The position numbers and the translations under genes were made by a program. A stretch of DNA of 64,000 nucleotides, from positions 228,593 to 292,592 of the forward strand of contig JAAEQR010000142.1 in assembly GCA_024231215.1 (NCBI GenBank), read 5' to 3'. Position 1 is the stretch's first letter. The number at the start of each line of letters is the position of its first letter. This document shows, in pieces, positions 755 to 21,272 of the stretch. The notes under the pieces are model-generated. The model ran no database searches and was not told the origin of the DNA. It saw nothing but the letters and a program-made list of their open reading frames with translations. Origin of the DNA: PVC group bacterium. GTDB taxonomy: Bacteria; Omnitrophota; Gorgyraeia; B26-G9.

Positions 755-2410
755 TCACTTATTAGTCATTTTTTCCTGCTCTGCTATCTCTCGCTTTACT
801 TTATACAAAATTTTTCTAAGCTGTTCTGCCTCTATATCTAAAACCTGTCTCTTGTTCTGCATCACTGGCAGCTGACTCTTTTCTTCCACTGGACTTATTA
901 CTGTTACCGGAGGTTCTTCAACCGGTAAATCCAGAGACAAATCATCAACTGCCGGTCTTTCATCTTGACGCTGTTTTAAATTTTTTCTCTTCTGACGACG
1001 CACTGTCTCATGCGTTTCAAGTTTTTTCGCCTTTTGTCTCTCACGTCTTCTTTTCATCTTATTTTTAAAATTATTCAATTCCGTAGTATCATCAAGCGCC
1101 AATGGTTCGGTATGTTCCAATTCCATATACAAGTCAATCTCCCGGTCACTCATCTCTGTCTGGGTAATTATATGCGGCGTAACAAATAAAATGAGTTCTG
1201 TCTCTACTTTAGATGTGCTTTTTCTTTTGAAAAATAATCCTAAAAAAGGAATATCTCCGAACCCCGGAACCTTATCAAAAGTTACCGCATCATTCACTCT
1301 CCGCAACCCACCAATAACAATAGTCTGTCCGTCTTTTACCAAAAGATTAGTCTCTGCTAAACGCTTATCAATAATCGGTTGCCCATCCAACTCTGCGGAT
1401 TTAAAACTTTGTTCCGGCTTAATATTCATAGATATAAAATTACCGCTGGTAATATGCGGCGTAACATTTAATTTTATACCTGCTTCTTTAAATTTTACAG
1501 TGGTTGTAACACCACCACCTGTATCTACACTCTCTAAATAAGGAATTTCTTCAATAATCTCAATTCTTGCTTCCTGATGATCCAAAGTCAAAACTTTAGG
1601 ATTAGCCAGAATCTGCGCCTTATTTTCCTGCTGCCACATATCTATCACAGCATCGACATTAAGATCTGCTAAAGCCGCGACAAAAGAAAACTGCCCGCTT
1701 CCTGAAGCAGCATCTCCCGCTGATAAATCGTAAGCCAATGTCCGGGTAGCACTATCATTACCAAGCTGGTCCAGCTTAAAACCCCACTTATCATCCTTAG
1801 TGATTTTAACATCAACCATCATTGCTTCGATCAGAACCTGGGGAGTAAGAGTATCCAGCGCAATTGACGCAGCTTCAACCTTATCAACTACACCAGGAAT
1901 ATCCGTAATAATTAAAGAGTTTGTACGAGGATCCGTCATGATACTACCTCGTTTACTAAGAACTTTAGATAAGGAGTTTTTCAAGCCATCTACATCGGCA
2001 AAATTCAACGGAACTATTTTAGTCACTAAAGGAACCTTGTTCTCTTCTTCAAGCGCACGCTGAAGACTCATAACCCGAATAAGCGTATCTTCCTTTTTAT
2101 AAGTAAAATTATATGTTCTTAAAATAGCATCCAGCGCATTTTCCCAAGGAACATCTTTTAACTGAACGCTAACTTTAGCATCAACATCATCTCCGGCAAT
2201 GATATTTACACCACCCTTATAAGCAAGAATGTTCAATACCTCACGCATATCAGTCTCTCTGAAATTTATAGAAACTAATCCCTCTGTCCCCTCATCTTCC
2301 GCTTGGGCATAATACACATCTAAAACAACAACATTAATAGAGACAATAAACATCAACAATAGCAAAACTATGTTTATCGGTCTTTTTATATAAATAGCGA
2401 AGCTCTCCAT
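755..2410 (-). CDS. pilQ: Type IV pilus secretin PilQ
   Basis: Secretin C-domain: ...LLVKDGQTIVIGGL...VPGFGDIPFLGLFFKRKSTSKVETELILFVTPHIIT. N0-like region, long Lys/Arg-rich C-terminal tail. The ORF track extends to 2476, but the MESFAIY start near 2410 precedes the signal/TM segment and avoids overlap with pilP. Confidence 0.85.
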   Translation of the reverse strand: MESFAIYIKRPINIVLLLLMFIVSINVVVLDVYYAQAEDEGTEGLVSINFRETDMREVLNILAYKGGVNIIAGDDVDAKVSVQLKDVPWENALDAILRTYNFTYKKEDTLIRVMSLQRALEEENKVPLVTKIVPLNFADVDGLKNSLSKVLSKRGSIMTDPRTNSLIITDIPGVVDKVEAASIALDTLTPQVLIEAMMVDVKITKDDKWGFKLDQLGNDSATRTLAYDLSAGDAASGSGQFSFVAALADLNVDAVIDMWQQENKAQILANPKVLTLDHQEARIEIIEEIPYLESVDTGGGVTTTVKFKEAGIKLNVTPHITSGNFISMNIKPEQSFKSAELDGQPIIDKRLAETNLLVKDGQTIVIGGLRRVNDAVTFDKVPGFGDIPFLGLFFKRKSTSKVETELILFVTPHIITQTEMSDREIDLYMELEHTEPLALDDTTELNNFKNKMKRRRERQKAKKLETHETVRRQKRKNLKQRQDERPAVDDLSLDLPVEEPPVTVISPVEEKSQLPVMQNKRQVLDIEAEQLRKILYKVKREIAEQEKMTNK

Positions 2411-2432
2411 TAATCCTCCTTGATCATTACAA

Positions 2433-2873
2433 TTATTGCTTTTGGATAAGAGATATCTCATGTGTAAGTTCTTCATAACTAAAAATCACACTGTTTTCTT
2501 TTATCTCTGTTATATCCAAATCAAAAATCGTATCGCCTTGTTTATGGATTTTATTATTAATCATTACTAAGGGCATCGCTTTATCCCAAAGGATCCCATT
2601 AACATCTATTTTTGCTAACCGCTTATTCAACTCTTCTTTTTTTACAACCGGCTTCATTGTCGGCCTGATCCCTGAAACATCTAACGAAGGAATAAAAGGA
2701 TCCCGCCGATCGTTGCTCTCATAAGTAAAAGAAACTTTTTCTTCTACTAATTCATCTTCTTGAGAACTCACAAAACCAAGCTTCCCTAAAAATAGTATTG
2801 CTCCAATAACTATTATATATATAAAACTCCTGTTTTGCCTATATATTTTCTTCATTTTGATCTTTTTCTTCAA
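2433..2873 (-). CDS. pilP: Pilus assembly lipoprotein PilP-like
   Basis: 146 aa, N-terminal signal/anchor, size and position between pilO and pilQ. Context-based call. Confidence 0.5.
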   Translation of the reverse strand: MKKKIKMKKIYRQNRSFIYIIVIGAILFLGKLGFVSSQEDELVEEKVSFTYESNDRRDPFIPSLDVSGIRPTMKPVVKKEELNKRLAKIDVNGILWDKAMPLVMINNKIHKQGDTIFDLDITEIKENSVIFSYEELTHEISLIQKQ

Positions 2874-3453
2874 ACAATGTTTTATTTTTCTTCAAAGCAT
2901 ATGACCTAATCATTAAGTTAATATTGTGGAGTTCAACATCTGAGTGATCCGGACGGATATCAAAAGTATCGACTTCCATAAACCTATCTGCCTGTTCAAC
3001 CAGATTGATAAACTTACCTAAAGAATGATACCCAGCTTTTAGTTCTAATGCAATTGGTATCTGCAGATAATCGCTGCCTTCCCCATCTTCTCCTATATGT
3101 ATTTCTTCTATTGTTTTAGGCTCTATTGACACAAATGTTATTTTACTTGCTTTCCCCATTTTTATAAGTTCTTCCAACAACTGAGCAACATTCGCTTCAG
3201 CCGGCAACCTTTCCTCGTGATATGTGATACTCTTCTTAATATTATTTACCTCTTCAAAAAGCTCATCTTTATTGGAAACTATTTCTGCGGCATTATCCAA
3301 CTGAGACAAAATATTACTCTCCTCTTTTGATAAATACAAAACCTTGGTGAAAAGAGGCAGAAAAACAAATACAAAATATAAAATTAAAATAATAAATAAT
3401 AATATAATCCCAGCAATAAGATATTGATTTTTTTCCAATGCCGCTTTATCCAT
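2839..3453 (-). CDS. pilO: Pilus assembly protein PilO-like
   Basis: 204 aa, single N-terminal TM followed by coiled coil and a periplasmic domain. Position after pilMN. Confidence 0.55.
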   Translation of the reverse strand: MDKAALEKNQYLIAGIILLFIILILYFVFVFLPLFTKVLYLSKEESNILSQLDNAAEIVSNKDELFEEVNNIKKSITYHEERLPAEANVAQLLEELIKMGKASKITFVSIEPKTIEEIHIGEDGEGSDYLQIPIALELKAGYHSLGKFINLVEQADRFMEVDTFDIRPDHSDVELHNINLMIRSYALKKNKTLFEEKDQNEENI

Positions 3454-3464
3454 AATTCATCTCT

Positions 3465-5132
3465 CTATTTCAATACCGCCTGAATTTCAAAACGCATGAC
3501 CGCTGATGCTCCTCTTACTTCCCTAAAAGAACGGATTAATTCAATCCTTGAAAAATCCTTAGCAAAAACCATATCATTTTTTAAACTACTTATAAGGCCG
3601 CTTGTTAATGACAGCATCTGCTCACTATGTTCTGCATAAGCCACCCCATTAATATTCAAAACCTGACTTACTTCATCTCTACGCAAATTAGTATCAACCA
3701 AACGCATAAATTCATCAGACATTCTCTTTGTTCCAATGTCTTTTGTTGCTGTATATATTCGGGTTAACCAAATATCCTGCGGTAAATTCGCACTAATTTC
3801 CTGAAGTTTTTCACTCCAACTTACTCTCCGTTTCAAAAGCGCACGAATACCTTCCATTTGATTATCAAGAATTTGCCTTGCCTCTTTCAACTTATCTATT
3901 TCTTCCAGAACAAGGGTCAAATCCCCATATTTCTCTTCTAACCTTATCTTATTTGTCTCTTTTATTTTTAATTGCGTAAACAAACCAATCCATAATGCTA
4001 TCAGCACTGTTAAAATCCCCGCACCGGCATAGATGAATTTTTTATGGGCAACAAGCTTCTCCCATATTTTGTTTCTTCTTACCGCTGCTTTATCTGAGGA
4101 GAGATTTATGCTAAAAGAACGATAACAAGCCAATCCTGCACATAATGCAAGCATCAAAGAGTTGTCCTTCAATTGCTTTTTTTTAAATTCAGTAGGCTCA
4201 TATATTAATTTAGCAATCGGATTCCACACAGTCACCTTTAAACCGAGAACCCCTTGCAAATATTTTTCCAGCCCTTTAAACATTGCAACTCTACCACTCA
4301 AAAAAAGCTCTTCTACCGTATCCCGCCCTTGGGTTTCATAATACTCTATAGCTCTTCTAATTTGATTGGACAAAGCATTGAGGATGAATAAACATAACTC
4401 ATATATATCATCACTCCCGTTTAACCCTTTAAGATGGCTAAGATTATTAAAATCAAGATCTAAATTTTTAGGCAAAGCATCAATCAGATTACTCCATGCA
4501 ACAAATCCGTCTTTTGTTAAACCAACAACCTTACCCTTAATAATATCAATGTTCGTAACTTCCATCCCGACATTAATCAAGGCAATAGTCTTATCATTGG
4601 AAACATCCGGTCCGTTTACATAAAAGCAATTCAAAAGGCTAAAAGTATCAACTTCAATCAGGCCGCAAGTATATCCGGTCGATGTAATCAAACTCGCATA
4701 GTTTTCGATCAAGTCTTTTTTTGCTGCAACAAGAATAACACGTGTCTTTGTTTCTGCTATTTTTTTATCTAAAACAGAGTAATAATCAAAAACAATATCC
4801 TCCATCTTATAGTGAACCTGGCGTTCCACTTCAAATTTCAATGCTTTTCTGATCTCAGAATCACCCATTTGCGGCCAATGGATATCACGCACAACAACAG
4901 ATTCTCCTGAAACCGAGATATTGATTTTGCATTTTTTCTTTTTTAACGGCAGCCGGCTCATCACTTCTTTGATCGCATTAATAATTCCATCCCGACCATC
5001 TCTGAAGTTAACCTCTACCATCTCAAAACCAAGCAGCTTATTTTCTTTTTCATTAGAAGCGATATAAAGGGCCTTTACCAATCCATCCCCTATCTCTACT
5101 CCCACAGCTTCTTGATATCTCTTAAAAAACAT
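3465..5132 (-). CDS. pilMN: Fused PilM (actin-like ATPase) and PilN (TM plus coiled coil) pilus assembly protein
   Basis: 555 aa. The N-terminal ~350 aa show a PilM/FtsA-like actin fold. A single TM (AGAGILTVLIALWIGLF) and a PilN-like coiled-coil periplasmic domain follow. Confidence 0.75.
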   Translation of the reverse strand: MFFKRYQEAVGVEIGDGLVKALYIASNEKENKLLGFEMVEVNFRDGRDGIINAIKEVMSRLPLKKKKCKINISVSGESVVVRDIHWPQMGDSEIRKALKFEVERQVHYKMEDIVFDYYSVLDKKIAETKTRVILVAAKKDLIENYASLITSTGYTCGLIEVDTFSLLNCFYVNGPDVSNDKTIALINVGMEVTNIDIIKGKVVGLTKDGFVAWSNLIDALPKNLDLDFNNLSHLKGLNGSDDIYELCLFILNALSNQIRRAIEYYETQGRDTVEELFLSGRVAMFKGLEKYLQGVLGLKVTVWNPIAKLIYEPTEFKKKQLKDNSLMLALCAGLACYRSFSINLSSDKAAVRRNKIWEKLVAHKKFIYAGAGILTVLIALWIGLFTQLKIKETNKIRLEEKYGDLTLVLEEIDKLKEARQILDNQMEGIRALLKRRVSWSEKLQEISANLPQDIWLTRIYTATKDIGTKRMSDEFMRLVDTNLRRDEVSQVLNINGVAYAEHSEQMLSLTSGLISSLKNDMVFAKDFSRIELIRSFREVRGASAVMRFEIQAVLK

Positions 5133-5149
5133 AATACTCCCTAGTCTTG

Positions 5150-6427
5150 TTACTCAGCATAATAAACTCTGTTGCGTCCAGCTCTTTTCGCCTCATAAAG
5201 CATCGCGTCAGCTTTTTGCAAAAGATCTTCCATTCCCAAATCGTTATCCGCAGGAGAGTGACGAACTGCCACCCCAACACTTATCGTAATCTTTACGAGT
5301 TTATTTCCCAACATAATAAACTCAGCGTTTTCCACATTAGCACGCAAACGTTCGGCTATAGAAAACTTACCGCCTTTTGTTTCCTCAAAACCAGGAAGAA
5401 CAACAACAAATTCTTCCCCCCCATAACGCGCACATATATCAGTAAGCCGCACACTATTATTCAGGATTTGTGCGATTTTTTTCAAAACCATATCGCCTTC
5501 CGGGTGGCCATAAGTATCATTGATCTCTTTAAAATGATCTATATCAATGATCAAAAAGCTTAACGGTATATTTTGACGATTGCAAAATTCTAACTCCTCT
5601 TTCATGCGTTTTTGCAAAAAAGTACGATTATAAAGTTGAGTGAGACGATCTACTGATGCAAGACCTCGATGGATAGCACTACCTAAAGCAATCGCCGCTT
5701 CCGAGACAAGCAAGAGGATAAACTCCTCCTCTCGTTTAAGTCGCAACGCCGCAGATTCTCCGCAAAACACAACGATTATGCCCCAAACCCGATCTTCCAA
5801 TATTAGCGGAATCATAGCTAACGCAGAAAGACGAGCAAGATGCGGCGGCCTGTCCTCTTTTAAAAAATATTTTATTTGAGTATCCTCTCCGAATATCTCA
5901 CTATTATTATCGGTATGAATTCTTTTTGATTTAATAACCTGCTTAATAATTTCATCAGTAGAACTAAACTCCATAGCCCTTAACATATTGCGATCAAAAT
6001 TTTTTCCCGTTACATAGGTGAAATCATCAGTACCTATATCCCGGGATAATATAAAACATTGACTCTCTCCCGTCATATCTTTTGTCAACTCCATAAAAGT
6101 ATCAACAATCAAACGCAACAATTGATCCTTACTTTTAGCGGAAGCAAGTTCTTTTCCGAAATTTTCTAACTGTTTAAAGTGTCTTTTCTGGTCTGCTTCC
6201 TTTTTTTTAATCTCTTTAAGCATCTCTTCTTTTTCATTCTGAAAAACAACAGTATTTTCTCTTAATTCTTTTGCTTGCTTACCAGCTAAGATTTTAGCCA
6301 TAACCGCTGCTGTAATAAACGGCACACTCACCACAATCAATGCCACAGACATCACTGGGTTAACAATTAAAAAAACTAACAGAAAAGTTACACCTACCCC
6401 CAATAATACAACTATAATTTTCCCCAT
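5150..6427 (-). CDS. Membrane-anchored GAF-GGDEF diguanylate cyclase
   Basis: Two N-terminal TM helices, a central GAF-like region, and a C-terminal GGDEF domain with intact GGEEF active site and RxxD I-site (RLTDICARYGGEEF). Confidence 0.85.
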   Translation of the reverse strand: MGKIIVVLLGVGVTFLLVFLIVNPVMSVALIVVSVPFITAAVMAKILAGKQAKELRENTVVFQNEKEEMLKEIKKKEADQKRHFKQLENFGKELASAKSKDQLLRLIVDTFMELTKDMTGESQCFILSRDIGTDDFTYVTGKNFDRNMLRAMEFSSTDEIIKQVIKSKRIHTDNNSEIFGEDTQIKYFLKEDRPPHLARLSALAMIPLILEDRVWGIIVVFCGESAALRLKREEEFILLLVSEAAIALGSAIHRGLASVDRLTQLYNRTFLQKRMKEELEFCNRQNIPLSFLIIDIDHFKEINDTYGHPEGDMVLKKIAQILNNSVRLTDICARYGGEEFVVVLPGFEETKGGKFSIAERLRANVENAEFIMLGNKLVKITISVGVAVRHSPADNDLGMEDLLQKADAMLYEAKRAGRNRVYYAE

Positions 6428-6439
6428 ATTAGCCTCTTT

Positions 6440-6637
6440 TTAATGTATTGACCTGCCTAATATCTTCAACCTTTTAATAATGTCATTCTGTGTATATTCT
6501 CTCCGGTTGTTTACTTTATTACGACGCGGCTCAGGAAACTTGCCTAATTTTTCATAACGACGAATCGTCTGCACCGAAATGCCCAAACGCTGAGCCACTT
6601 CGCCAATAGAAAAAAATCGTTCCATCATATCATACAC
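6440..6637 (-). CDS. Small HTH DNA-binding protein (MerR/excisionase-type HTH_17)
   Basis: 65 aa. FSIGEVAQRLGISVQTIRRYEKLG is a MerR-like helix-turn-helix. It lies 12 nt upstream of the GGDEF gene, so the two are probably co-transcribed. Confidence 0.55.
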   Translation of the reverse strand: MYDMMERFFSIGEVAQRLGISVQTIRRYEKLGKFPEPRRNKVNNRREYTQNDIIKRLKILGRSIH

Positions 6638-6654: not shown

Positions 6655-6690
6655 GTCTTGATATAGTTTGATACTGTTTGATATGATTTT
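6655..6690. repeat. Three to four direct TTGATA repeats phased at exactly 10 bp
   Basis: tgtcTTGATAtagtTTGATActgtTTGATAtgatTTtATc, in the 164-bp gap between the pilA1 stop and the HTH gene start. Confidence 0.4.
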
Positions 6691-6801
6691 ATCATCTTTA
6701 AATAGCTCGTGTCAATAAAAATCCGATATATAAATCTCCATATAAATAGCGAATTTATGAGGAAAATATAGGCTCTTCAATCCTTTGAAGGTTAGGAGAG
6801 C

Positions 6802-7305
6802 TTACTGACAGGGCGTAAGAGCATAATAATCAGCTTCTTTGTCTATAACTGCCCCGTTATTATTTACTGCCCGCAAAACTCCAGTTTCATTAACCGAAAA
6901 TGTACGTTCGCCGGTTGCACGATAAATTTCCGGGGTAGCAGAACAGACATATTGCCGGTCATTAATACGCGTATATGTAAAATTATATCCCTTTTTAGCA
7001 AGTCCGGTAGTTGCCGTATCTACGGTATTATCAATATACGCTGGTATTGCTACTGTCATTTCCGCCATATTAAGCGGAAATCTCATGGGTGATCTTGCAA
7101 CACGAAAATTCTCACATGCAGTACAAAGAGCTTTTAATGTTCCTTGGGCAACAGCTTCATTTGCCGCCAGGCGAGCTCGCAAAAGATTAGGTATTGCTAA
7201 TGCTGCCAACATCGCAATAATAGCTACCACAATCATAATTTCGACCAGCGTAAACCCTGCATCTTGATGCGGGGCACATCCAGTTATGTGCTGCCCCATG
7301 CCCAC
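6802..7305 (-). CDS. pilA: Type IV major pilin (PilA-type), copy 1
   Basis: Class III signal and N-methylation motif G|FTLVEIMIVVAIIAMLAALAIPNLLRA. GTG start with AGGAGG 8 nt upstream. The leader (about 17 aa) is unusually long. Confidence 0.85.
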   Translation of the reverse strand: MGMGQHITGCAPHQDAGFTLVEIMIVVAIIAMLAALAIPNLLRARLAANEAVAQGTLKALCTACENFRVARSPMRFPLNMAEMTVAIPAYIDNTVDTATTGLAKKGYNFTYTRINDRQYVCSATPEIYRATGERTFSVNETGVLRAVNNNGAVIDKEADYYALTPCQ

Positions 7306-7365: not shown

Positions 7366-7400
7366 GACAAAAAAAAAGCGGCAATTTAATTGCCGCTTTT
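7366..7400 (-). terminator. Rho-independent terminator after pilA2
   Basis: Minus strand reads GCGGCAATT-AAA-TTGCCGC followed by TTTTTTTTT. Confidence 0.6.
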
Positions 7401-7413
7401 TTTCTATCAAACA

Positions 7414-7873
7414 TTACTGGATAACAGTCATTGCATCATACAATGCTTGTGTATTAATAGTTGATTTACCTGCTGTGGCTCTGATTACACCAGTTTGATC
7501 AACCCCAAAAGTTCTAGTTCCAGTTGTCTGGTTAACATCCGGTTCTGCTCCACAAATATAAGTGTTTGCAGTCAAACGTGTAAATGTATACACATATCCC
7601 TGTCTACCAGGTGATGCTGCAAATACAGTTGCGTCAACATATGCCGGAGTTGCACCGGTCATTGCCGCGGCATTTGCCGGATAAGCCGGCGTTGTTTGTG
7701 CTGCCCGAAAACTCTCAGCTGCTGTAGAAATAGTCTTCAAAGTTGACTGTGCTGCTGCTTCATTAGCATTAACTCTTGCACGAAGCAAATTCGGGATAGC
7801 GATAGCCGCCAATAACGCAATAATTGCTACAACAATCATAATTTCAACCAACGTAAAACCCTTGCGCCCCATA
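7414..7873 (-). CDS. pilA: Type IV major pilin (PilA-type), copy 2
   Basis: MGRKG|FTLVEIMIVVAIIALLAAIAIPNLLRA. GGGAGGTG Shine-Dalgarno before the ATG at about 7873. The ORF track's longer MNVNRNW... start is unlikely. Confidence 0.85.
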
Positions 7874-7968
7874 ATTAACACCTCCCTCTCTCTCCAGTTA
7901 CGGTTAACATTCATTTTTTGCCTTATAGCTTTTTCCCTGATGCATCTCCTTGGCCCTGCCTCTAAATT

Positions 7969-7984
7969 AGCATTTGCTATGCCA
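7969..7984 (-). promoter_or_regulatory. Candidate sigma54 (-24/-12) promoter for pilA2
   Basis: Minus strand TGGCATAGCAAATGCT fits TGGCAC-N5-TTGC, with the GG and GC elements 12 nt apart. It sits about 95 nt upstream of the pilA2 ATG. A sigma54-dependent activator (pilR) is encoded next door. Confidence 0.5.
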
Positions 7985-8210: not shown

Positions 8211-9569
8211 CTATAGTCCGTAACGTTTAATCTTATAGTCTAAGTTCCGGCGAGTCATTTTAAGCTTCTGAGCAACCAAGTTTTTATTGCCGCTTGTTTC
8301 GACCAGAGTTTTAGCAATCAACTCTTTCTCAAACTGCTCCACCTTATCCTTCAAAGACTCCTCAGATGCCAGTATATTGTTCGCTTCCGGCGACTGAGCA
8401 AAATCAGAAATACGCTGCGGCAGATCTGTAGCAGCAATAATGTCCTGCTCTCCTAAGGTAACTGCGCTTTCTACTGCATTTTCAAGCTCCCGCACATTAC
8501 CGGGCCAATGATAAGAAAGCATAACATCCATAGCTTCTTCAGAAAATCTTTTAACAGGCTTGCCTGGCATTTGATATTTTTTTAAAAAATGGGGTAAAAG
8601 AAGCGAAATATCTTCTTTTCTTTGCTGTAAAGAAGGTAGATATACAGAAATTACACTAATGCGATAGAAAAGATCTTTTCTAAAGTTACCCCTTTTGACT
8701 TCCTCTTCTAAGTTCCTATTTGTAGCCGCAACAATTCGCACGTCAACTTTAATGTTTTTAGTTGCACCAACCGATCGAATTTCTTTCTCCTGCAATGCCC
8801 TTAATAATTTTGCCTGCATAGCCGGAGATGTCTCTCCTATCTCATCTAAGAATAACGTCCCCCCCACGGCAACCTCAAACAACCCCTGTTTTGTAGATAT
8901 CGCACCGGTAAAAGATCCTTTTACATGTCCAAAAAGTTCGCTCTCTAAAAGATCATCCGGAAGTGCTCCGCAATCTATAGAAACAAACGGTTTTCCCGCC
9001 CTTAGACTATTGTAATGCATTGCTTTGGCAATCAGCTCTTTTCCCGTACCACTTTCCCCGTTAATTAATACTGTAGTATTGGTCTTTGCAACTTTATCAA
9101 CCATATCAAATACTTTTTGCATGGGCTTGCTTTTTCCAATTATATTTGCAAAGCGATAGCGTTCCTTTAATTTTTTCTGTGTTGATTTATCTTCGGAAAA
9201 TATTCTTTTTTGACTAAAAGCCTTCTTTATTACTAACTTTATATCCTGCAGCTTAAACGGCTTGGTTAAATAATCATGTGCTCCATAACGCAAAGATTTT
9301 ACCGCTGTTTCCACAGATGCATAAGCCGTAATAATTAAAACAATAATCTCTGGATTATGCGTTTTTACCTGCCGAAGAAGTTCAAGCCCGCTCACCTCTC
9401 CCATCCGGACATCTGTAATCACCATATCAAATGCCTCTTTACGAAAAAGTTCAAGCCCCTTTTCCGCTGAGACAGCACATTTGACAGAATAGCCTTCATT
9501 TTCTAAAACAACACTAAGCCATTCCAAAAGATCTTTTTCATCATCAACTAAAAGAATACGTCCACTCAT
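8211..9569 (-). CDS. pilR: Sigma54-dependent response regulator PilR (REC-AAA+-HTH)
   Basis: REC domain, sigma54-interaction AAA+ domain (GESGTGKE, GAFTGA-like loop), C-terminal Fis-type HTH. Confidence 0.9.
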   Translation of the reverse strand: MSGRILLVDDEKDLLEWLSVVLENEGYSVKCAVSAEKGLELFRKEAFDMVITDVRMGEVSGLELLRQVKTHNPEIIVLIITAYASVETAVKSLRYGAHDYLTKPFKLQDIKLVIKKAFSQKRIFSEDKSTQKKLKERYRFANIIGKSKPMQKVFDMVDKVAKTNTTVLINGESGTGKELIAKAMHYNSLRAGKPFVSIDCGALPDDLLESELFGHVKGSFTGAISTKQGLFEVAVGGTLFLDEIGETSPAMQAKLLRALQEKEIRSVGATKNIKVDVRIVAATNRNLEEEVKRGNFRKDLFYRISVISVYLPSLQQRKEDISLLLPHFLKKYQMPGKPVKRFSEEAMDVMLSYHWPGNVRELENAVESAVTLGEQDIIAATDLPQRISDFAQSPEANNILASEESLKDKVEQFEKELIAKTLVETSGNKNLVAQKLKMTRRNLDYKIKRYGL

Positions 9570-9585: not shown

Positions 9586-10833
9586 TTAATTATTAATAGG
9601 GAGAGTTACTTTAAACGTCGCCCCCTTCCCTAATACACTAACTACATCAATCGTTCCTTTATGTTCTTTTATTATACTATAAACAATTGACAACCCCAAC
9701 CCCACACCTTTTTCCTTTCCGCTGGAAAAAGGTTCAAATAGATTATTTAAAAGTTCTTTATCTATCCCTACACCATTGTCGCCAATTTCTATTTCTACAA
9801 AGCTTTTTTTCTCATCCATGCTTTGCCTAATCGTAATTTTTCCTTTTTCTCCAACTGCTTCTACCGCATTGATCAATAGATTGAAAAACACCTGCTTAAT
9901 ATGTTCTCCGTCACAACTAACTTTTATTCCTTTAAGACTTTTCGCCTTTTCAATCACGACGCCAGGCTTAAAATCCTTACTATTCTGAACCAGCATCAAA
10001 ACCTCATCCATAAGTTCATCAGTAGAAACAGATTCCAATCGTAATTTTCTAGGCTTAACATATTCCAGCAAACCATTAATAATATTATTTAATCTTGCCG
10101 TTTCCTTTATAATAAGATTGAACAGTTTTTGGCTATTATCATCTAACGTGATCATATCATTTAACGCCTCCACACATCCGGATATTGATGCCAAAGGATT
10201 GCGTATTTCATGCGCCGTGCTTGCCGCTAGTTTGCCTATCGCCGAAAGCCTGTCTTCACGCCGCAACTTTTCCTCTAAAGACATTACGACTTTATCACGT
10301 TTTTTTACCTGCGCAGCAATATACGCGCTTAAAAATCCGATAATACAAAAAACCGTAACCCGTAGATATAGTAAAGAAAAAACATATGTGCTTTCCCTCG
10401 GAAAAATTGAGATAATATTAGACGGCAATGGAATAATCGCGTAATATTCCAAGCTCACAACTGCAGAGTACAAAATACTGCCTAACAATGCAATTATTAC
10501 AGCTGCGCGAGGAGAAATAAGAATACTTGCGGCAATAGAAGAAAGTGGGTACAAAATACCTAATACCGAGTCAATCCCTCCGGTATAATGAATAAGCAAT
10601 GTTTCAAGAGTGAGATCGATTATGATTTGCGCATAAAGAAATCCTACAGTGGTAGAGATTCGGCTTAAGAGAAGCAATGAATATACTATCGTTAATAAAT
10701 AGATACTCGCTACAAAAAGATATACCGGAGTTCGGGCAAGTCCAAACAAAGCAGTATTGACAACTAGTATTACCGTGGCAATACAAAAACGAAAAATGAT
10801 AATTTTATATAACTCAGCTTTATTGTTTAACAT
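9586..10833 (-). CDS. pilS: Sensor histidine kinase PilS (polytopic membrane domain, HisKA, HATPase)
   Basis: About 6 N-terminal TM helices, H-box (STAHEIRNPL), HATPase_c. Sits directly upstream of pilR. Confidence 0.8.
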   Translation of the reverse strand: MLNNKAELYKIIIFRFCIATVILVVNTALFGLARTPVYLFVASIYLLTIVYSLLLLSRISTTVGFLYAQIIIDLTLETLLIHYTGGIDSVLGILYPLSSIAASILISPRAAVIIALLGSILYSAVVSLEYYAIIPLPSNIISIFPRESTYVFSLLYLRVTVFCIIGFLSAYIAAQVKKRDKVVMSLEEKLRREDRLSAIGKLAASTAHEIRNPLASISGCVEALNDMITLDDNSQKLFNLIIKETARLNNIINGLLEYVKPRKLRLESVSTDELMDEVLMLVQNSKDFKPGVVIEKAKSLKGIKVSCDGEHIKQVFFNLLINAVEAVGEKGKITIRQSMDEKKSFVEIEIGDNGVGIDKELLNNLFEPFSSGKEKGVGLGLSIVYSIIKEHKGTIDVVSVLGKGATFKVTLPINN

Positions 10834-11688: not shown

Positions 11689-14427
11689 TTAAAAACTAAT
11701 TTGATTGAAAAAATCAATACTTACTTCTTGCCATAAAGACTCTGAACCTCCGAAGAAAACATCCGAAGGAGAGCGTGTAGCCGTCTTAAATCTTCGATCA
11801 TAGGACAAGTAAACTTTAGACGGAGATTTTAGAGCAAAATAACTTGTCCAGCTTCCGCCGACCTTTCTACCCCGGCTGCTCTGCCCTAAACTCGTCGATT
11901 TATACGATGAACTCCATTCATAATCTACAAAATCATATTTTGGAGCTGTGAATTCTCCGTTTTTATCCAAAATAAAAAATGCACCGGATAAAATTTTATC
12001 GCGGTCAACCGTCTTCTTATTTGCTGAATCCCAGTAACTCCAGTTCTCTAATGTTTCTCCCTTAGTTCCACGATTGCAGGCAAGAACCGTATTGTATTTA
12101 TGATGTTCATACACCCGGTTAGGCATCATACCATAAGTATAATTCTCTCCACTTGCCGGCCAGCTGAATGTAGCTGTCTTTGTACCGCTCGGATCGTGAT
12201 GCCAAAATAGACGCTTATAAGTATCGTCTTTACTAACAATTCCATTTTTAATATTTACTTCATTAGCATCTGATATAGATGGATAATAATCTTCCCATTG
12301 ATAATTTAGTCGCCAATGTTCAACCCAAAACCCGCCTCCTTTGTTTGGATCAGATTCTGCATAAATTCCGCTTGCCGCATCTTTCTTAACATACATATAA
12401 GGATAATCACGATAATGCGAAGTAGCCGGGCTTACCTGAGGATCATTGAAATCATCAGATAAGGTATATACCCTTTTCTTACTAACAATCGCGCTGGTCA
12501 CCCAGTCTGCTGTATTGTAATTTCCTTTCAGGTAAATATTTTCTTCTCCCAAAACCGTAAATCCATAATTTGCCATCTTACGCGGAAGTTTTTTCGCGTT
12601 TGCCAAACGTAAAGGAACTTTCGTATAAAGGATTCCGTTGTCCGGATAATTCCCGGCTTTTTGCATTTCATCTACATCTATTTCAAGAATCACATTCCAC
12701 TTATTCGTTCTTGTGTTAATAAATTCAACTTTTTTGGCTACATTATATGTATGTCCGTTATTTAAATCTGTTACTGCATCATCAATGCTTTTTTCAAGGA
12801 TATTCTGCCATTCGTTGTAGTCATTAAATTTACCGTCAAAATCTGTATGCAAATCAACATATAATCCGCCGCGTTCTGCCAACTTTGCATAGGCAGTATC
12901 AAATTCAGGCGGAGTCAAATATTCACCACCGGTATTACAATCCCGCACAATACCATCTAAACCAGCAGAATTCTTTAAAAAATCTTCCCATGCTGTCGGC
13001 TGTTTTTTTGTTTCTAAATGTTTTACCGGGATAGTTCCTCCACCCGCACGTTCATCTCCATATGTCCCGTCAAATACTACTTCAGGATTAAAAAAATCCG
13101 GCCAATCAGAATGACTCCCACGCGCTTTCCAATAATCAGGACTGCGAAACATCTCCCAATACGTTTTAGCATTCGGATGTTTTCCTAATTTAGATTTATC
13201 AACCCAAACCACCTTGCCTGATTCTATATCCCACCATGTATCTTTTACATCAACTTTCTTATTTCCTTTATCATATGTCCAGAAAGACACCGGAGTCTCG
13301 CTTGAGGCATCACCACTGCCATAAGCATCTCCTTTATACTTCTGCCACATCCAGGTCTCATCTATTTCTGCGGGAAGCTCATCCCATTTTCCGGAAATTA
13401 TTTCACCGGTATCTTCATCTATCCCCTCATAAGGCTGTAACCACAGATTGTATTTATTTAAAGGCTTACCACTATCATTCACCACCCCATAATAAGAAGA
13501 TCCTGATGGAATCTCATTCCAGGGCAGCCTATCCCCGCTAAAAGCCCATTCTGTAGAACGATACGCCTCTCCCGGAAAGTAAGCAGCAAAGTCCCTAGCT
13601 TGAGATCTCCAATTCCAATGCCGGGTGCCATATTTATCCCAAGAATAATATCCCCATGGACCCGGATCATCCTTACCATCTCTTCTAAAAACATCACCCG
13701 GGTCATCTAATCTCATGATCGGCGCTTTTCCGTCCATAGTCCCATCGTAACGATCAGCATAATAAGGCGCCGGATAGCGATCATAGCACTGGTAATAAAT
13801 AGTCCCTTCATCTCCTGTACTTAACTCACTGATATTTTCCAAGGCAACATGTGAATCTATCTTGATATTCCCGTTGGTATGAATTCCTCCCCCATTAAGC
13901 CTGGGATGACTTCCTACCGAATTATTAAGATCAATACTATATGGACTATAGAAAAAGAAATCATAAATACCCCTCCGACTCAAGGTACAGGTTACCGCAC
14001 GTTGTTCATTCCCATCCATCCCCATGGCTACAACCACAGTCTTGTCTTCATCAATCTGATCCTGATAAGCCTTGACCATAAAGGTTCCGTCATCAGATAT
14101 ATAAAACCCGCCCCCGTCAAAAGAACAATCCGTTCTAAGCTTCTGATGGTAACCGGAATCTGAAGAATCTACCGGCAACAATGTATCTCTATCATCATTC
14201 CATTTATGGGTATACCACTGAGATGCAAACTCCTGAGATTCATAGGTAGCATAAGCAAGTCCCATCTCTGCGAAACTAAGCGCTTTCTTCCCTTCCACTT
14301 CTTTAGTAACACTCTTACGCTCACTAATCACCAGCATAAATAAAGAGGCCGACACAACAATAAGAACAAACATTACAATGTAGGTTGAAATTAGGATAGT
14401 TCCCTTTTTATTTAGTAGTAGTCTCAT
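11689..14427 (-). CDS. Large PilX_N-domain protein, putative pilus tip-associated protein (PilY1/PilX-like)
   Basis: 912 aa. The N-terminus (KKGTILISTYIVMFVLIVVSASLFMLVISERKS...ALSFAEMGLAYA) resembles the PilX N-terminal pseudopilin-like domain. Trp/Tyr/Asp/Gly-rich, non-repetitive periplasmic region. Sits downstream of two minor pilins. Confidence 0.5.
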   Translation of the reverse strand: MRLLLNKKGTILISTYIVMFVLIVVSASLFMLVISERKSVTKEVEGKKALSFAEMGLAYATYESQEFASQWYTHKWNDDRDTLLPVDSSDSGYHQKLRTDCSFDGGGFYISDDGTFMVKAYQDQIDEDKTVVVAMGMDGNEQRAVTCTLSRRGIYDFFFYSPYSIDLNNSVGSHPRLNGGGIHTNGNIKIDSHVALENISELSTGDEGTIYYQCYDRYPAPYYADRYDGTMDGKAPIMRLDDPGDVFRRDGKDDPGPWGYYSWDKYGTRHWNWRSQARDFAAYFPGEAYRSTEWAFSGDRLPWNEIPSGSSYYGVVNDSGKPLNKYNLWLQPYEGIDEDTGEIISGKWDELPAEIDETWMWQKYKGDAYGSGDASSETPVSFWTYDKGNKKVDVKDTWWDIESGKVVWVDKSKLGKHPNAKTYWEMFRSPDYWKARGSHSDWPDFFNPEVVFDGTYGDERAGGGTIPVKHLETKKQPTAWEDFLKNSAGLDGIVRDCNTGGEYLTPPEFDTAYAKLAERGGLYVDLHTDFDGKFNDYNEWQNILEKSIDDAVTDLNNGHTYNVAKKVEFINTRTNKWNVILEIDVDEMQKAGNYPDNGILYTKVPLRLANAKKLPRKMANYGFTVLGEENIYLKGNYNTADWVTSAIVSKKRVYTLSDDFNDPQVSPATSHYRDYPYMYVKKDAASGIYAESDPNKGGGFWVEHWRLNYQWEDYYPSISDANEVNIKNGIVSKDDTYKRLFWHHDPSGTKTATFSWPASGENYTYGMMPNRVYEHHKYNTVLACNRGTKGETLENWSYWDSANKKTVDRDKILSGAFFILDKNGEFTAPKYDFVDYEWSSSYKSTSLGQSSRGRKVGGSWTSYFALKSPSKVYLSYDRRFKTATRSPSDVFFGGSESLWQEVSIDFFNQISF

Positions 14428-14439
14428 TGTCCCCTCCTT

Positions 14440-15084
14440 TTAATTGCGCCAGTACACCCTATTATTCAAGGTTATATTCAATGGATCACTCAAACATCGC
14501 CCTCTGAGTGTATCCTTTTCCGTCTTAATTTCAATCTCTACAAGTTCAATTAAAGAATCCACAACATACCCTTTTGATCCTGCATCATATTTATATCCTG
14601 TCACTTTAAAATCAGCTACATCTTCGGATGTTATAACCTGATCAATCAAAGTATTACTATCGTCCCAAACCCTGCGTAATATCTGGTTTGAGCTATCATC
14701 CCAACAATACTCAATAGACCAATCTATATTAGCTTCAGCTCCCCATTCAATCCGCCCATACGCATCCAAGCCCACCGGAACCTGAAAAACAATACTTTTA
14801 CCGGCATTAGGATTAGCTGCTGCCCCCCCCTGGTCTATAGGCATATCATATATTTCCGCATAGGTCCCCTTAGAAACTCTCATCTCCTTTACCATATCAT
14901 TAACAACTTTTCTAGCCTGTTTAGATATATCCCATTTGCCCAAGCACTGATCCGTAAAATAATTATGTGATATGAGAGCGCTGAACAATGTTCCGATCAC
15001 CACGGTATAAATTCCCAAAGACACAATCATCTCTGTTAAAGTAAAACCACTTTTATCCGTTAAATATCTTTTTTTAAATTTCAC
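14440..15084 (-). CDS. Minor pilin (prepilin-type N-terminal cleavage/methylation domain, PilW/FimT-like)
   Basis: SG|FTLTEMIVSLGIYTVVIGTLFSAL class III signal. Confidence 0.7.
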   Translation of the reverse strand: MKFKKRYLTDKSGFTLTEMIVSLGIYTVVIGTLFSALISHNYFTDQCLGKWDISKQARKVVNDMVKEMRVSKGTYAEIYDMPIDQGGAAANPNAGKSIVFQVPVGLDAYGRIEWGAEANIDWSIEYCWDDSSNQILRRVWDDSNTLIDQVITSEDVADFKVTGYKYDAGSKGYVVDSLIELVEIEIKTEKDTLRGRCLSDPLNITLNNRVYWRN

Positions 15085-15097
15085 TTAACCCATCCTC

Positions 15098-15556
15098 CTA
15101 TTTATAAATAATTGCTGTTTCCATAGAACAAGGAGAATCTATTTGCCCATTACCATTCTCATCTTCTCCTCCGTCTAATACCCCGTTCAGGTTTTGATCT
15201 TCACCAATAACCCGGGTGCGCTGCCTCCAGCATACAACAACTTTTACCTTCATTAAGAAATCCGTTTCTATTTCATTAACATACACTACACCTATATTTT
15301 CAACCCCACGATTATCTAATTCATTTAAAGTAAATGAATTGCCCGCATAAACCGAAACAATATCATCGTAAGGCACATTACGGATTCCATCTATCATACC
15401 TTCGACCGCATGCATAGCCGGGGTTATATTTTCATTTAACTCATTCATTTGAAATAAATAATTAGTAGCCTGAAACGACGCTCCAAGAGCAATTGCCATA
15501 ACTGCCACTGAAATCAAAATCTCCACAAGTGTAAATCCTTTTTTCGCTTGTAGCAT
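15098..15556 (-). CDS. Minor pilin (PilV/GspH-like pseudopilin)
   Basis: MLQAKKG|FTLVEILISVAVMAIALG. The likely start is the ATG at about 15556 with an AAAGGGGA Shine-Dalgarno. The track's GTG at 15574 would abut the leader terminator. Confidence 0.7.
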   Translation of the reverse strand: MLQAKKGFTLVEILISVAVMAIALGASFQATNYLFQMNELNENITPAMHAVEGMIDGIRNVPYDDIVSVYAGNSFTLNELDNRGVENIGVVYVNEIETDFLMKVKVVVCWRQRTRVIGEDQNLNGVLDGGEDENGNGQIDSPCSMETAIIYK

Positions 15557-15579
15557 AAACTTTCCCCTTTCCACTCCAT

Positions 15580-15742
15580 AAAAAAATAGACCGAATTACC
15601 ATCCTTTACTTCGGTAACTCGGCCGCCATTAATTTCTCCCCCTCAATTCGGTATCCCGGCTATCTGAAAGGAAAAACCTTTAGACCCGTAGCTTTGCGTC
15701 CCTAATTTTCACTAGGTTTGCCATTGTCGGTAAAAGGGCATA
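15580..15742 (-). ncRNA. c-di-GMP-I (GEMM) riboswitch with intrinsic-terminator expression platform
   Basis: Minus strand reads ...ACAATGGCAAACCUAGUGAAAAUUAGGGACGCAAAGCUACGGGUCUAAAGG...GAUAGCCGGGAUACCGAAUUGAGG.... This carries the GEMM hallmarks GGCAAACC, a GAAA-tetraloop P1 hairpin, GGGACGCAAAGCUACGGGUCU and GGGAUACC. Downstream, UUACCGAAG...AAUUCGGUCUAUUUUUUU forms a terminator hairpin. Its 3' arm can alternatively pair with the aptamer's ACCGAAUU. Confidence 0.8.
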
Positions 15743-17178: not shown

Positions 17179-18909
17179 TTATTCCGCAGAGGTAACTCTC
17201 AGCACTTCTTCTAAAGTCGTCTTACCCGCCAAGAAATTAATTAACCCGGCATCACGCAAGGTTACCATATTACATTCTTTTTTAGCATAACGTTTAATTT
17301 CATCGCTAGAGGAACGATTCATAATCATTTCTCTTATCGAATCATTAACAACCATGATTTCAATCATGGCAAAACGCCCTCGATATCCGGAACCGCTGCA
17401 ATAATTACAACCTTTGCCTTTATATACCGTAATATCTTCACTTTTCTTATCTAATCCTAAACGATCCAATACCGACTGCGGCACTTCATACTGTTCCTTG
17501 CATTTATCACAAATTTTACGCGCAAGCCTTTGCGCAACCACAGCAACCACACTCGAAGAGATCAAAAAAGGCTCAATCCCCATATCAATAAGCCTGGTTA
17601 CTGCACCCGGGGCGTCATTTGTATGCAGTGTACTAAGAAGCATAGCTCCGGTCAAAGCCGCTTTTATTGCGATATCACCTGTTTCAAAATCCCGGATTTC
17701 CCCAACCATTAAAACATCAGGGTTTTGCCTTAATATTGAGCGCAATCCAGAAGAAAAAGTTAAACCAATATCCGGCTTAACCTGCACCTGAGTAATCCCT
17801 TCTACTTGATATTCAACCGGATCCTCAATTGTAATAAGATTTTTATCCGGAGTATTCAACCGATTAAGCACTGAATATAATGTGGTTGATTTACCGCTAC
17901 CCGTAGGCCCGGTAACCAAGATCATTCCATACGGCCGGTTAATCGCAAAATTGAAATTGGTCAAAGCCTCCGGCAGAAACCCTAAAGCTTCAAGCCCAAT
18001 ACTTAAATTGGCCTTATCTAAAGCACGCATAACTACTTTTTCACCAAAACTTATCGGTAATACAGAAACACGAAAATCAACTTCCTTCTTCTCAAATTTA
18101 ACTTTAAACCTTCCGTCCTGAGGAATAAGACGCTGGGTAATATCCAAATTTGACATTATCTTCAAACGAGCCGCGATCGCATTTTGAATTTTTTTTGGCA
18201 AAACCGCTGCCTCATGCAAAGCTCCATCGATGCGATATCTTACACGTATATTGTGCTCATAAGGCTCAATGTGAATATCCGATGCCCTCTTAAGTAAAGA
18301 TTCTGCAATTAAAGCATCGATCATTTTAACAATCGGAGCTTCTTCACTGGAACGAATTACATCTCCGATATCTACTTGATCCTGCTGACCTACAACCTCA
18401 ATATCTTCATCCTGAATATTTTTAACCAAGTCATCCAAAGAAGCAGCTGCTTTTTGAGCTTCGGCACCTGCAGGATGATACAACCTATTGATTGCCTTTC
18501 CCACCGTACCTAAAGAGCATACAGCCGGATTCACATCATAACCGGTAAGCGCCTTTATATCATCAACTGCCAATACATTCAGGGGATCACTCATCGCCAC
18601 AGTAAGAATATTACCCACATGAGATATAGCTAAAAGATGATAATGCTGTGCAACGTGCTCAGGAATAATTTTTATAAGTTTTTCCGGAGCTTTAAACTTT
18701 TCAAGATTAATAAGTGGAATGCTTAAATAATGACAGAAACAAACAGCAATGTCTTCCTCACTTACAAACTTTTCTTCCACTAATATAGCCGCTAGTTGAC
18801 CACCTTTTTGTTGTTGAATATTCAAGGCTTTGTCAATATCGTCTTTTTCTACCAGTTTGTAGTCAAGTAATAACTCATTAAGCCGTTTTTTAATTCTGCT
18901 TCTGCGCAT
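17179..18909 (-). CDS. pilB: Type IV pilus assembly ATPase PilB/GspE family, paralog 1
   Basis: MshEN-like N-terminal domain, Walker A GPTGSGKSTTLYS, Asp/His boxes, C-terminal tetracysteine. Confidence 0.85.
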   Translation of the reverse strand: MRRSRIKKRLNELLLDYKLVEKDDIDKALNIQQQKGGQLAAILVEEKFVSEEDIAVCFCHYLSIPLINLEKFKAPEKLIKIIPEHVAQHYHLLAISHVGNILTVAMSDPLNVLAVDDIKALTGYDVNPAVCSLGTVGKAINRLYHPAGAEAQKAAASLDDLVKNIQDEDIEVVGQQDQVDIGDVIRSSEEAPIVKMIDALIAESLLKRASDIHIEPYEHNIRVRYRIDGALHEAAVLPKKIQNAIAARLKIMSNLDITQRLIPQDGRFKVKFEKKEVDFRVSVLPISFGEKVVMRALDKANLSIGLEALGFLPEALTNFNFAINRPYGMILVTGPTGSGKSTTLYSVLNRLNTPDKNLITIEDPVEYQVEGITQVQVKPDIGLTFSSGLRSILRQNPDVLMVGEIRDFETGDIAIKAALTGAMLLSTLHTNDAPGAVTRLIDMGIEPFLISSSVVAVVAQRLARKICDKCKEQYEVPQSVLDRLGLDKKSEDITVYKGKGCNYCSGSGYRGRFAMIEIMVVNDSIREMIMNRSSSDEIKRYAKKECNMVTLRDAGLINFLAGKTTLEEVLRVTSAE

Positions 18910-20663: not shown

Positions 20664-21272
20664 TTAGGCGTAGTATTTAGCTATCGCGTTATTAATATCC
20701 GAAAATGTGGAAATAAATGCTTCGACATCCAATTCCGTCATTTTCTTAATTTGGTCTTTTGCAGAGGTATTAAGAGGGTCGGCCATAGCCAGGGTAAGAA
20801 TATTGCCGATTTTATCTATCGGAATAAGCGAATATTTAACGGCAATATCTTTTGAGACAAGTTTTACTAGTTCTGCATCGATCTCATAATTTTCCAACTC
20901 TAGATAAGGAAACCCAAACTGAGTAACCAGAGCACTTACTAAATCTTCTTCACTAATATGTCCCAAATCAATACTGTGCTGAGATAATGCTCCCCCCTTA
21001 GTTTCCTGGAGTTTCACTGCTTCATCAAGCTGTTCCTGCGTAAGCATCCCCATTTCCAACAAAACATTTTCTAACTTCTGAGCCCGGTGAGTTTGCTCAT
21101 AAATACTTTCTTCAATTTGTTCACGTGTAACAAATTGAAGCTTAACTAAAATCTGTCCTACCAACCCCCCCTCTTGCAGCTGTACCTCCAACGCCTTCTG
21201 CAGCTGCTCCTGAGTAATTAGTTTTTTCTCAATTAAAATTTGGCCTATTGGTTTAGTTCTTGCCTTTTTCAA
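20664..21272 (-). CDS. Standalone T2SSE_N/MshEN-like domain protein, candidate c-di-GMP receptor
   Basis: 202 aa with no ATPase domain. Repeated 24-residue segments (PIGQILIEKKLITQEQLQKALEVQ; KLENVLLEMGMLTQEQLDEAVKLQ) fit the MshEN c-di-GMP-binding motif. C-terminal GSPII_E_N fold (ILTLAMADPLN). Confidence 0.6.
   Translation of the reverse strand: MKKARTKPIGQILIEKKLITQEQLQKALEVQLQEGGLVGQILVKLQFVTREQIEESIYEQTHRAQKLENVLLEMGMLTQEQLDEAVKLQETKGGALSQHSIDLGHISEEDLVSALVTQFGFPYLELENYEIDAELVKLVSKDIAVKYSLIPIDKIGNILTLAMADPLNTSAKDQIKKMTELDVEAFISTFSDINNAIAKYYA

Follow-up and report, generated by a model that had tools for sequence, protein, structure and literature searches.

Type IV pilus control by cyclic di-GMP (c-di-GMP) is well known, and to our knowledge the cyclases of the studied pilus systems are encoded elsewhere, their link to the machine having been found by genetics. 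The stretch of DNA shown above, from a metagenome-assembled genome of a PVC group bacterium of the Omnitrophota (the window, 64 kb in full), raises the question of whether such a link can be written into the pilus operon itself. A gene for a membrane-anchored GAF-GGDEF diguanylate cyclase of 425 amino acids (aa; 5150..6427) stands here directly before a pilMN-pilO-pilP-pilQ block, and is itself preceded by a gene for a small MerR-type helix-turn-helix (HTH) protein (6440..6637). All genes of the finding are on the minus strand, and coordinates are window positions throughout. Both open reading frames lie where an initial annotation of the sequence had placed them, in one orientation with pilMN; of its spacings, the 12 nucleotides (nt) between the HTH stop codon and the cyclase ATG (6428-6439) stand, while the gap from the cyclase stop to the pilMN ATG is 17 nt (5133-5149) rather than 18. 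Each gap holds a ribosome-binding site, AGAGG in the case of the cyclase. We consider it probable that these genes form a type IV pilus operon, specific to one clade, which encodes its own diguanylate cyclase within a cluster that also reads the signal.

The evidence that carries this explanation is the linkage of the cyclase to pilMN across the Omnitrophota. An exact look-up of the cyclase gave no record, but the homology database holds an identical protein (P0001), annotated together with identical HTH and PilM proteins on one NCBI contig. The ortholog family comprises 35 members, with P0002-P0035 at 48-65% full-length identity and the next matches at or below 39%; every member with a source name belongs to the Omnitrophota. 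Loci with enough flanking sequence were taken from the cyclase side (L001, L003, L004, L086, L087, L088, L089, L090, L093, L094 and L095), and a scan of metagenomes with the sensor-domain alignment was specific and returned seven loci. In 14 of 14 Omnitrophota loci that encode the PilM-PilN fusion, the gene immediately before it is that of the cyclase, the two frames either overlapping (L001, 11 nt; L004, 8 nt) or lying at most about 90 nt apart (11-39 nt in L003, L093, L094 and L095), and pilO, pilP and pilQ follow the fusion in the orthologous loci found from the cyclase side. Two loci picked from the PilMN side irrespective of the cyclase (L098 and L099) likewise have a GGDEF gene of 425-439 aa with the signature RLTD-x5-GGEEF immediately upstream. 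In size and distribution, the family of fused PilMN proteins (546-564 aa, identity 48% or more) equals that of the cyclase. Genes outside the cluster vary, with V-type ATPase genes after pilQ in L004 and rimP elsewhere; since the outside neighbors differ between loci, the adjacency is not mere frozen synteny. As a negative control, the paralog P0038 (36% identity) lies behind ribosomal-protein genes, outside any pilus context, and no cyclase is present in L100 (5001-6664), the one Omnitrophota locus with unfused PilM and PilN that was examined. The literature searched contained no description of a strict co-occurrence of a cyclase with a PilM-PilN fusion, and no relevant description of a cyclase inside a pilMNOPQ operon or of Omnitrophota pili, which limits how far novelty can be claimed.

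Downstream of the cyclase, the window encodes a PilM-PilN fusion of 555 aa (3465..5132; PilM_2 at 107 bits, E 1e-30, residues 41-336), the PilN part of which has no Pfam match; PilO (2839..3453; Pfam PilO, 59.7 bits, E 4.5e-16); a small PilP-like protein (2433..2873) with a sub-threshold T2SSB match, whose gene overlaps pilO and pilQ and keeps its position in all loci; and, as the last gene of the unit, the PilQ secretin (755..2476; Secretin at 163 bits, Secretin_N and STN domains). The PilM, PilO and secretin profiles thus fall in one co-oriented block, which has no separate PilN and no recognizable PilP. Behind pilQ, the promoter scan places a consensus promoter (685-658, minus strand) for rimP-nusA-infB, the first of these genes being identified by its RimP match.

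A sigma-70-type promoter, TTGACA-18 nt-TAAAAT with the TG of an extended -10 element, lies upstream of the HTH gene (6686..6715) and matches the consensus at 11 of 12 positions. Taken alone this match means little, because a scan of the window finds promoter-like sites as often as in shuffled sequences; a promoter of the form TTGACA-17/18-(TG)TAxxxT is, however, present at the same place in 12 of 12 orthologous loci and precedes the small first cistron in each. No terminator-like site was found on the minus strand from 6715 to 2476, which agrees with the earlier statement that none separates the first three genes, and the terminator-like matches within pilQ (1711-1690 and 1269-1255) are not above the number expected from shuffles. 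The synteny in 14 of 14 loci, the overlapping or nearly abutting frames and the conserved promoter together place the cyclase, as the initial annotation had proposed, in the predicted pilMNOPQ transcription unit, and the predicted co-transcription of the HTH gene, the cyclase and pilMNOPQ is well supported by this comparison of loci. That the HTH gene or the cyclase gene had recently been acquired by horizontal transfer was also considered and rejected: GC content is uniform across the genes, so that nothing in their composition suggests it.

Is the cyclase likely to work? Its two membrane helices and coiled coil are joined to a GAF and a GGDEF domain, and the assignment as a cyclase is based on Pfam, PDB sequence matches and the ortholog family. 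The GGDEF catalytic domain (5168..5659, minus strand) matches PF00990 at 159.2 bits (cut-off 23.8; E 9e-47) over residues 257-420 and the full profile (1-161), with the domains of the active cyclases DosC, PleD and WspR as its best PDB sequence matches. The GGEEF motif occupies residues 336-340 (nt 5408-5422; GGGGGGGAAGAATTT when the DNA is read directly), and the RLTD I-site residues 327-330 (nt 5438-5449), five residues before it. In an alignment of 22 orthologs and one paralog (23 sequences, 48-65% identity), residues D297, N303, D304, D312, R327, D330, G336, G337, E339, F340 and K414 are invariant, while position 338, the third of the motif, is E or D. The intact GGEEF site and RxxD I-site described earlier are therefore shared by the orthologs save for this one D/E position, and a dead GGDEF domain, which by that earlier account would weaken the model, finds no sign in residues that are all kept here and in the orthologs. 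With its metal- and guanine-binding residues and its I-site intact, the cyclase is predicted to be catalytically active. Identity as a Hypr-type cGAMP synthase was rejected: position 312, which from alignment to PleD we take to be the Hypr specificity position, is Asp in all orthologs and Ser in Hypr enzymes. The Asp that specifies guanine is retained, and there is thus no hint of a cGAMP-producing enzyme.

On the input side, hydropathy indicates a two-helix transmembrane hairpin with a very short N-P turn (residues 4-47; 6287..6418, minus strand) and no periplasmic domain. Conservation, taken as the fraction of the majority residue, is lowest in this part of the protein, at 0.56 as against 0.73 for the GAF domain, 0.80 for the GGDEF domain and 0.87 for the signaling helix between the two, although a few positions (G, FL, F, P, G, PF) are fixed; the hairpin as an unusually conserved docking surface was rejected on these values. 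The sensor (residues about 98-248; 5684..6136, minus strand) is marginal in Pfam, with 22.5 bits for GAF (cut-off 22.4) and 24.5 bits for GAF_2 (cut-off 28.6). Its GAF fold is confirmed at the level of a predicted structure: an AlphaFold2 (AF2) model of residues 60-257 (pLDDT 85.2) places it between a long helix and the highly conserved signaling helix, and all of the Foldseek PDB matches listed for the model, 112 of them at E ≤ 0.001, are GAF domains or GAF-containing proteins. The top match is the GAF domain of Lcd1 from Leptospira interrogans with bound cAMP (5w10, E 6.7e-7). Lcd1 shares the GAF-GGDEF architecture but has no membrane hairpin and no pilus context, and identity is just 15-17% to Lcd1 and 15-18% to the PDB matches, so that the ligand cannot be transferred from it. 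The orthologous sensor family is well defined, and its ligand could be sought.

From these elements we propose that the promoter at 6715-6686 would drive one transcript carrying a small first cistron, the cyclase, pilMN, pilO, pilP and pilQ. The cyclase would be anchored in the inner membrane by its hairpin, with the GAF and GGDEF domains in the cytoplasm, and dimerization in parallel along the long helices would pair two GGDEF domains for the conversion of GTP to c-di-GMP. Binding of some ligand by the GAF domain may set this activity through the conserved signaling helix, and the RxxD I-site may limit output by product inhibition. Made in step with and beside PilMN, PilO, PilP and PilQ, the cyclase therefore most likely supplies c-di-GMP to this pilus.

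What, then, is the role of the small HTH protein? Two starts are available to its gene, a GTG at 6637 giving 65 aa and an ATG at 6628, 8 nt after AAGGAG, giving 62 aa; an annotated 62-aa protein (P0121) equals it at 100% identity and coverage, and the shorter form from ATG 6628 is more likely than the 65-aa form. Its kinship with MerR is evident from Pfam (MerR PF00376 at 51.1 bits, PF13411 at 43.1 bits) and from a sequence match to the MerR protein 4ua1 (E 9e-8, HTH residues 9-59), and the matches cover no more than residues 3-51 of MerR proteins that are 120-280 residues long. The AF2 model (pLDDT 85.5) has the order helix-helix-hairpin-helix, with helices at 8-15, 19-28 and 47-56, and in Foldseek it superposes on the DNA-binding domains of the MerR family, the matches of its own size being BldC (6ama) and the DNA-binding domain of RacA. 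The protein ends at residue 62-65, and neither sequence nor model revealed a coiled-coil dimerization helix or an effector region. The earlier description as a MerR-type HTH therefore holds for the winged HTH, but the protein is a DNA-binding domain only, without the dimerization helix or effector domain of that family.

A domain-only protein of this kind has a precedent in BldC of Streptomyces, which binds direct repeats head-to-tail at the repeat AATT-N4-C (Schumacher et al., 2018, PMC5859096). The two are alike in size (about 60-70 residues) and in consisting of the MerR-type winged HTH alone, and the model aligns to 6ama with a TM-score of 0.57-0.64 (target TM-score 0.62-0.64, 53-60 columns); no sequence homology was detected, BldC being absent among the 43 PDB sequences found at E ≤ 1. 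The promoter of the window carries a candidate operator (6659..6694, minus strand) that overlaps the -10 element and the transcript start and consists of TGATA (6694-6690) and three TATCA direct repeats (6683-6679, 6673-6669 and 6663-6659) exactly 10 bp apart. It differs from the BldC repeat in its word, and the copies at L086 and L097 form inverted pairs rather than direct repeats. Nor is it a classical MerR operator, a palindrome within an over-long promoter spacer of 19-20 bp: the spacer here is 18 bp, and the motifs lie over the -10 element and downstream. TATCA/TGATA copies per 80 nt number four in the window, four in L001, two in L086 and three in L097, all HTH-associated promoters, as opposed to zero or one in nine HTH-less promoters and a window background of 0.26; the block in L001 is near-identical to that of the window although the flanks have diverged. 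This pattern suggests that the HTH protein binds the TATCA repeats and regulates its own gene, and in the sub-lineage of the window the 62-aa protein would most likely autoregulate the operon in a BldC-like manner from its own -10/+1 region.

The HTH gene is not, however, a constant part of the operon. In a word-indexed search its family comprises seven proteins of 62-74 aa, and among the cyclase loci it is found in 3 of 14 (the window, L001 and L086). The claim that an HTH gene heads the operon is thus correct for the window and does not extend to the 11 other loci; to judge from this distribution, it is a lineage-specific add-on. In eight HTH-less loci the slot is taken by a conserved protein of about 67 aa with the signature MTWKCFSN ... 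R.KI.YS ... (I/L)VFWGG..R.KK and no Pfam match (L098, 2502-2708; L099, 1973-2176; L088, about 3524-3733; L003, 9813-10013; L093, 3672-3977; also L089, L090 and L092), so that either of two small, unrelated proteins can occupy the head of the operon; in three further loci the open reading frames at this place are short or degenerate. As a separate observation, the leader between promoter and small open reading frame in L089 (about 5465-5510) contains tandem TTAATAA units that are absent in its close relative L090.

These data leave some room for the HTH protein not being a regulator of the cyclase-pilMNOPQ unit at all, but rather a member of the pilin/PilSR module, or an architectural or excisionase-like DNA-binding protein. 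The clearest case is L097 (4416-5785, GCA_018399295.1), where an ortholog at 73% identity stands between a pilin gene with its terminator and rimP-nusA; neither the cyclase nor pilMNOPQ is found here, although the locus keeps pilB, pilC, pilS, pilR and the pilin. The absence from most cyclase loci points the same way, as does a weak match to the excisionase-type family HTH_17 (26.3 bits against a cut-off of 27). On the other hand, TATCA/TGATA is present at the gene's own promoter wherever the gene occurs, L097 included, which fits autoregulation regardless of where the gene sits; in the window only 12 nt and no terminator separate it from the cyclase gene, and no integrase or mobile-element gene is nearby. 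We regard such a role outside the operon as rather unlikely.

If the operon makes c-di-GMP, which components of the cluster could read it? c-di-GMP riboswitches (GEMM, or c-di-GMP-I, and c-di-GMP-II) control type IV pilin genes, for example pilA1 of Clostridioides difficile. A comparable aptamer is present at 15646..15731 (minus strand), where Rfam RF03167 scores 67.7 bits (threshold 59; E 7e-14); this model describes the GGC variant, which shares its clan with c-di-GMP-I, and one lower-scoring match of that clan was suppressed. It has its own promoter (TTGACA-17-TATACT, 15808-15780, minus strand), is followed by a terminator with a 12-pair stem and U run (15580..15624, minus strand), and precedes a pilin-like gene (15098-15574, minus strand) and two conserved proteins without an assigned family. 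The arrangement of aptamer and terminator in the leader of a pilin-like operon thus resembles the riboswitches mentioned above; unlike in those, the producer of the ligand is here encoded in the same cluster. At the orthologous position of L003 (933-1056) the match is to plain c-di-GMP-I (RF01051, 50.3 bits against 35), so that the GEMM riboswitch noted earlier is both present and positionally conserved. The window aptamer reads GACGCAAAG and UACCGA where the GGC-model consensus reads GACGCGAAG and UGCCGA, with the canonical A in place of G at both sites, positions that by Vc2 numbering we take to be the canonical ligand-contact bases. From these canonical bases and the c-di-GMP-I match in L003 the riboswitch is read as a c-di-GMP sensor, its predicted ligand being c-di-GMP. 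As a side observation, the 214- and 912-aa proteins encoded after the riboswitch and pilin-like gene (11689-15084, minus strand) have no Pfam match but are kept in size and position (229/941 aa in L001, 225/912 aa in L003), and may be minor-pilin or tip components.

Three proteins with MshEN domains (Pfam PF05157; 68.6, 67.8 and 73.0 bits) could act as protein sensors: two PilB-type ATPases (18924-20639 and 17179-18909, minus strand) and a stand-alone tandem-MshEN protein of 202 aa (20664-21272, minus strand), which lacks an ATPase domain and whose motif pairs span residues 8-60 and 66-118. All three show the two-motif layout with its 5-residue spacer. In the MshE/PilB receptors, c-di-GMP is bound by MshEN through a 24-residue motif (Wang et al., 2016, PMC5013675). 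There, and in the FimX-PilB systems of P. aeruginosa and Xanthomonas, c-di-GMP acts on the pilus extension ATPase, of which the present cluster has two in addition to the stand-alone protein; in those systems the cyclase lies outside the pilus operon, and a FimX-like GGDEF-EAL protein is not present in the Omnitrophota cluster. Reading of the signal would accordingly fall to the riboswitch before the pilin-like operon, perhaps joined by the MshEN modules of PilB or by the stand-alone protein. The circuit had been described as self-contained, which is only partly supported: the 64-kb window contains no EAL, HD-GYP or PilZ gene, that is, neither a phosphodiesterase nor a PilZ receptor, so that within the visible sequence the circuit does not stand on its own. 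That it serves one pilus system alone is an inference from the 64-kb window.

Several observations weigh against the explanation as a whole, and its parts should be interpreted with corresponding caution. The protein sensors stand as domains, but their 24-residue motifs are degenerate. Unlike those of the MshE/PilB receptors, they all deviate from the binding consensus, each with one to three mismatches even when the pattern of Wang et al. is taken in its relaxed form. All four PilB motifs have another residue in place of the Gly at the third position, and the key Gly is changed in most copies overall; within the cluster, the motifs of the stand-alone protein come nearest to the published pattern for c-di-GMP binding. 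Because the key Gly is among the changes, c-di-GMP binding is not assured. For the sign of riboswitch control, minimum-energy folds show a clear terminator but an ambiguous switching logic. The weak conservation of the hairpin mildly disfavors a specific membrane contact of the cyclase with PilN or PilO. The HTH protein, found in few of the cyclase loci and surviving in L097 without the cyclase operon, could have a different target, and its putative operator word is short (five bases) and AT-rich, with few independent loci to judge it by, the window and L001 not being independent. Lastly, a terminator was sought after the second pilin gene, which would have made the HTH promoter the sole start, but the fold of 6745-6815 is no better than that of shuffles (z = -0.59); read-through into the HTH gene is therefore possible, and the HTH gene may not be the first of every transcript.

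The direction of signaling could also be the reverse, with the cyclase as an output of the pilus machine: PilMN or PilO would modulate the enzyme, so that pilus activity or surface contact is reported to the cell-wide c-di-GMP pool. This is compatible with the explanation preferred here. In Pseudomonas aeruginosa, PilO binds the transmembrane domain of the cyclase SadC and inhibits it (Webster et al., bioRxiv 10.1101/2020.10.17.343988), a precedent in which, as in the Omnitrophota, a membrane-anchored GGDEF cyclase is tied to the alignment subcomplex (PilMNOP) of a type IV pilus. SadC differs in being encoded elsewhere in the genome, in its larger transmembrane domain and in lacking a GAF domain, and its link to PilO is a demonstrated protein contact, whereas that in the Omnitrophota is genetic, by membership of the same operon across the clade. 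A membrane anchor without periplasmic domain and a linkage (co-expression) with PilMN/PilO that appears obligatory across the 14 loci would suit such an output role, and the degenerate MshEN motifs weaken the input model. The pattern of conservation speaks against it, the hairpin being the least conserved region whereas the cytoplasmic GAF domain and signaling helix are the most conserved parts of the sensor, which points to a soluble ligand; in addition, the riboswitch in the same cluster indicates that the cluster also reads the signal. We consider such an output role rather unlikely.

A bolder version of the operon-encoded supply can be suggested tentatively, although we would not expect it to hold in full: the cyclase might be a physical part of the pilus basal body that arose with the PilM-PilN fusion in one Omnitrophota clade, docked on PilMN/PilO as a local source of c-di-GMP, which the riboswitch and the degenerate MshEN modules would sense on site, with the first cistron (HTH or the protein of about 67 aa) as a swappable regulator. 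If true, no type IV pilus machine before it would have had a second-messenger synthase built in.

That the arrangement is a genomic convenience, the cyclase being one of several that feed a common pool without pilus-specific meaning, is very improbable: GAF-GGDEF proteins are very common (7846 matches at E ≤ 1e-10, and in a scan of genome contigs with the full-length cyclase alignment, which took up the generic motifs VDRLTQLYN and FKxINDTYG, the matches listed were generic GGDEF proteins from many phyla) and no phosphodiesterase or PilZ protein is found within the window, but the adjacency holds down to 48% identity while neighbors change on both sides of the cluster, orthologs of the cyclase occur exclusively together with the fused form of PilMN, the nearest paralog lies elsewhere in its genome, and coincidence of position is unlikely given linkage in all 14 loci and overlapping frames in two of them.

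The answer to the question posed by this locus is thus one of arrangement. Each part (GAF-GGDEF, PilMNOPQ, the c-di-GMP-I riboswitch, MshEN and the MerR fold) is ordinary, and it is the arrangement that is new; a cyclase as a fixed cistron of pilMNOPQ is a new wiring of a known signal to a known machine and will not surprise a specialist. An operon-encoded link that is kept across a clade of an uncultivated phylum nonetheless provides a clean natural case for local second-messenger signaling, with one cyclase, one pilus base, one riboswitch and few candidate protein receptors as the parts of a test-bed, and the domain-only MerR protein with its candidate operator as a further handle. A dependence on cell-to-cell contact is assumed for the Omnitrophota, and the regulation of their pili may bear on this lifestyle.

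The operon is the distal part of a larger pilus cluster. In the direction of transcription this begins with pilT, a receiver-domain gene, a second pilT, the stand-alone MshEN gene, two pilB genes with MshEN, pilC and the riboswitch; it continues with the pilin-like gene, three proteins without Pfam matches, pilS and pilR, and then with a pilin gene, a terminator, a second pilin gene, the HTH gene, the cyclase and pilMN-O-P-Q, after which rimP-nusA follows. The first pilin gene (7414-7914) is followed by a strong intrinsic terminator with a 20-pair stem and T run (7366..7408, minus strand), and the second (6802..7305, minus strand; N_methyl motif) lies directly upstream of the HTH unit. Upstream of the first pilin gene we note a sigma-54-type -24/-12 element, TGGCAT-N5-ATGCT (7969..7984, minus strand). 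Across the whole window this pattern shows no enrichment, so that position alone argues for the site; it fits the adjacent pair of PilS (9586-10833, minus strand) and PilR, a sigma-54 activator (8211-9569, minus strand), both identified by Pfam. The two pilin genes and the cyclase operon are thus apparently served by promoters of different types.

Two further observations concern genes at and beyond the head of the cluster. The receiver-domain gene between the two pilT-like ATPase genes (22339-22758, minus strand) encodes a single-domain response-regulator receiver and overlaps the second of them by 11 nt. Genes for ComEC (Competence/DUF4131; 43848-45401) and ComEA (HHH_3; 46625-46999), both on the minus strand, are present in the same window, and the pilus could therefore serve DNA uptake.

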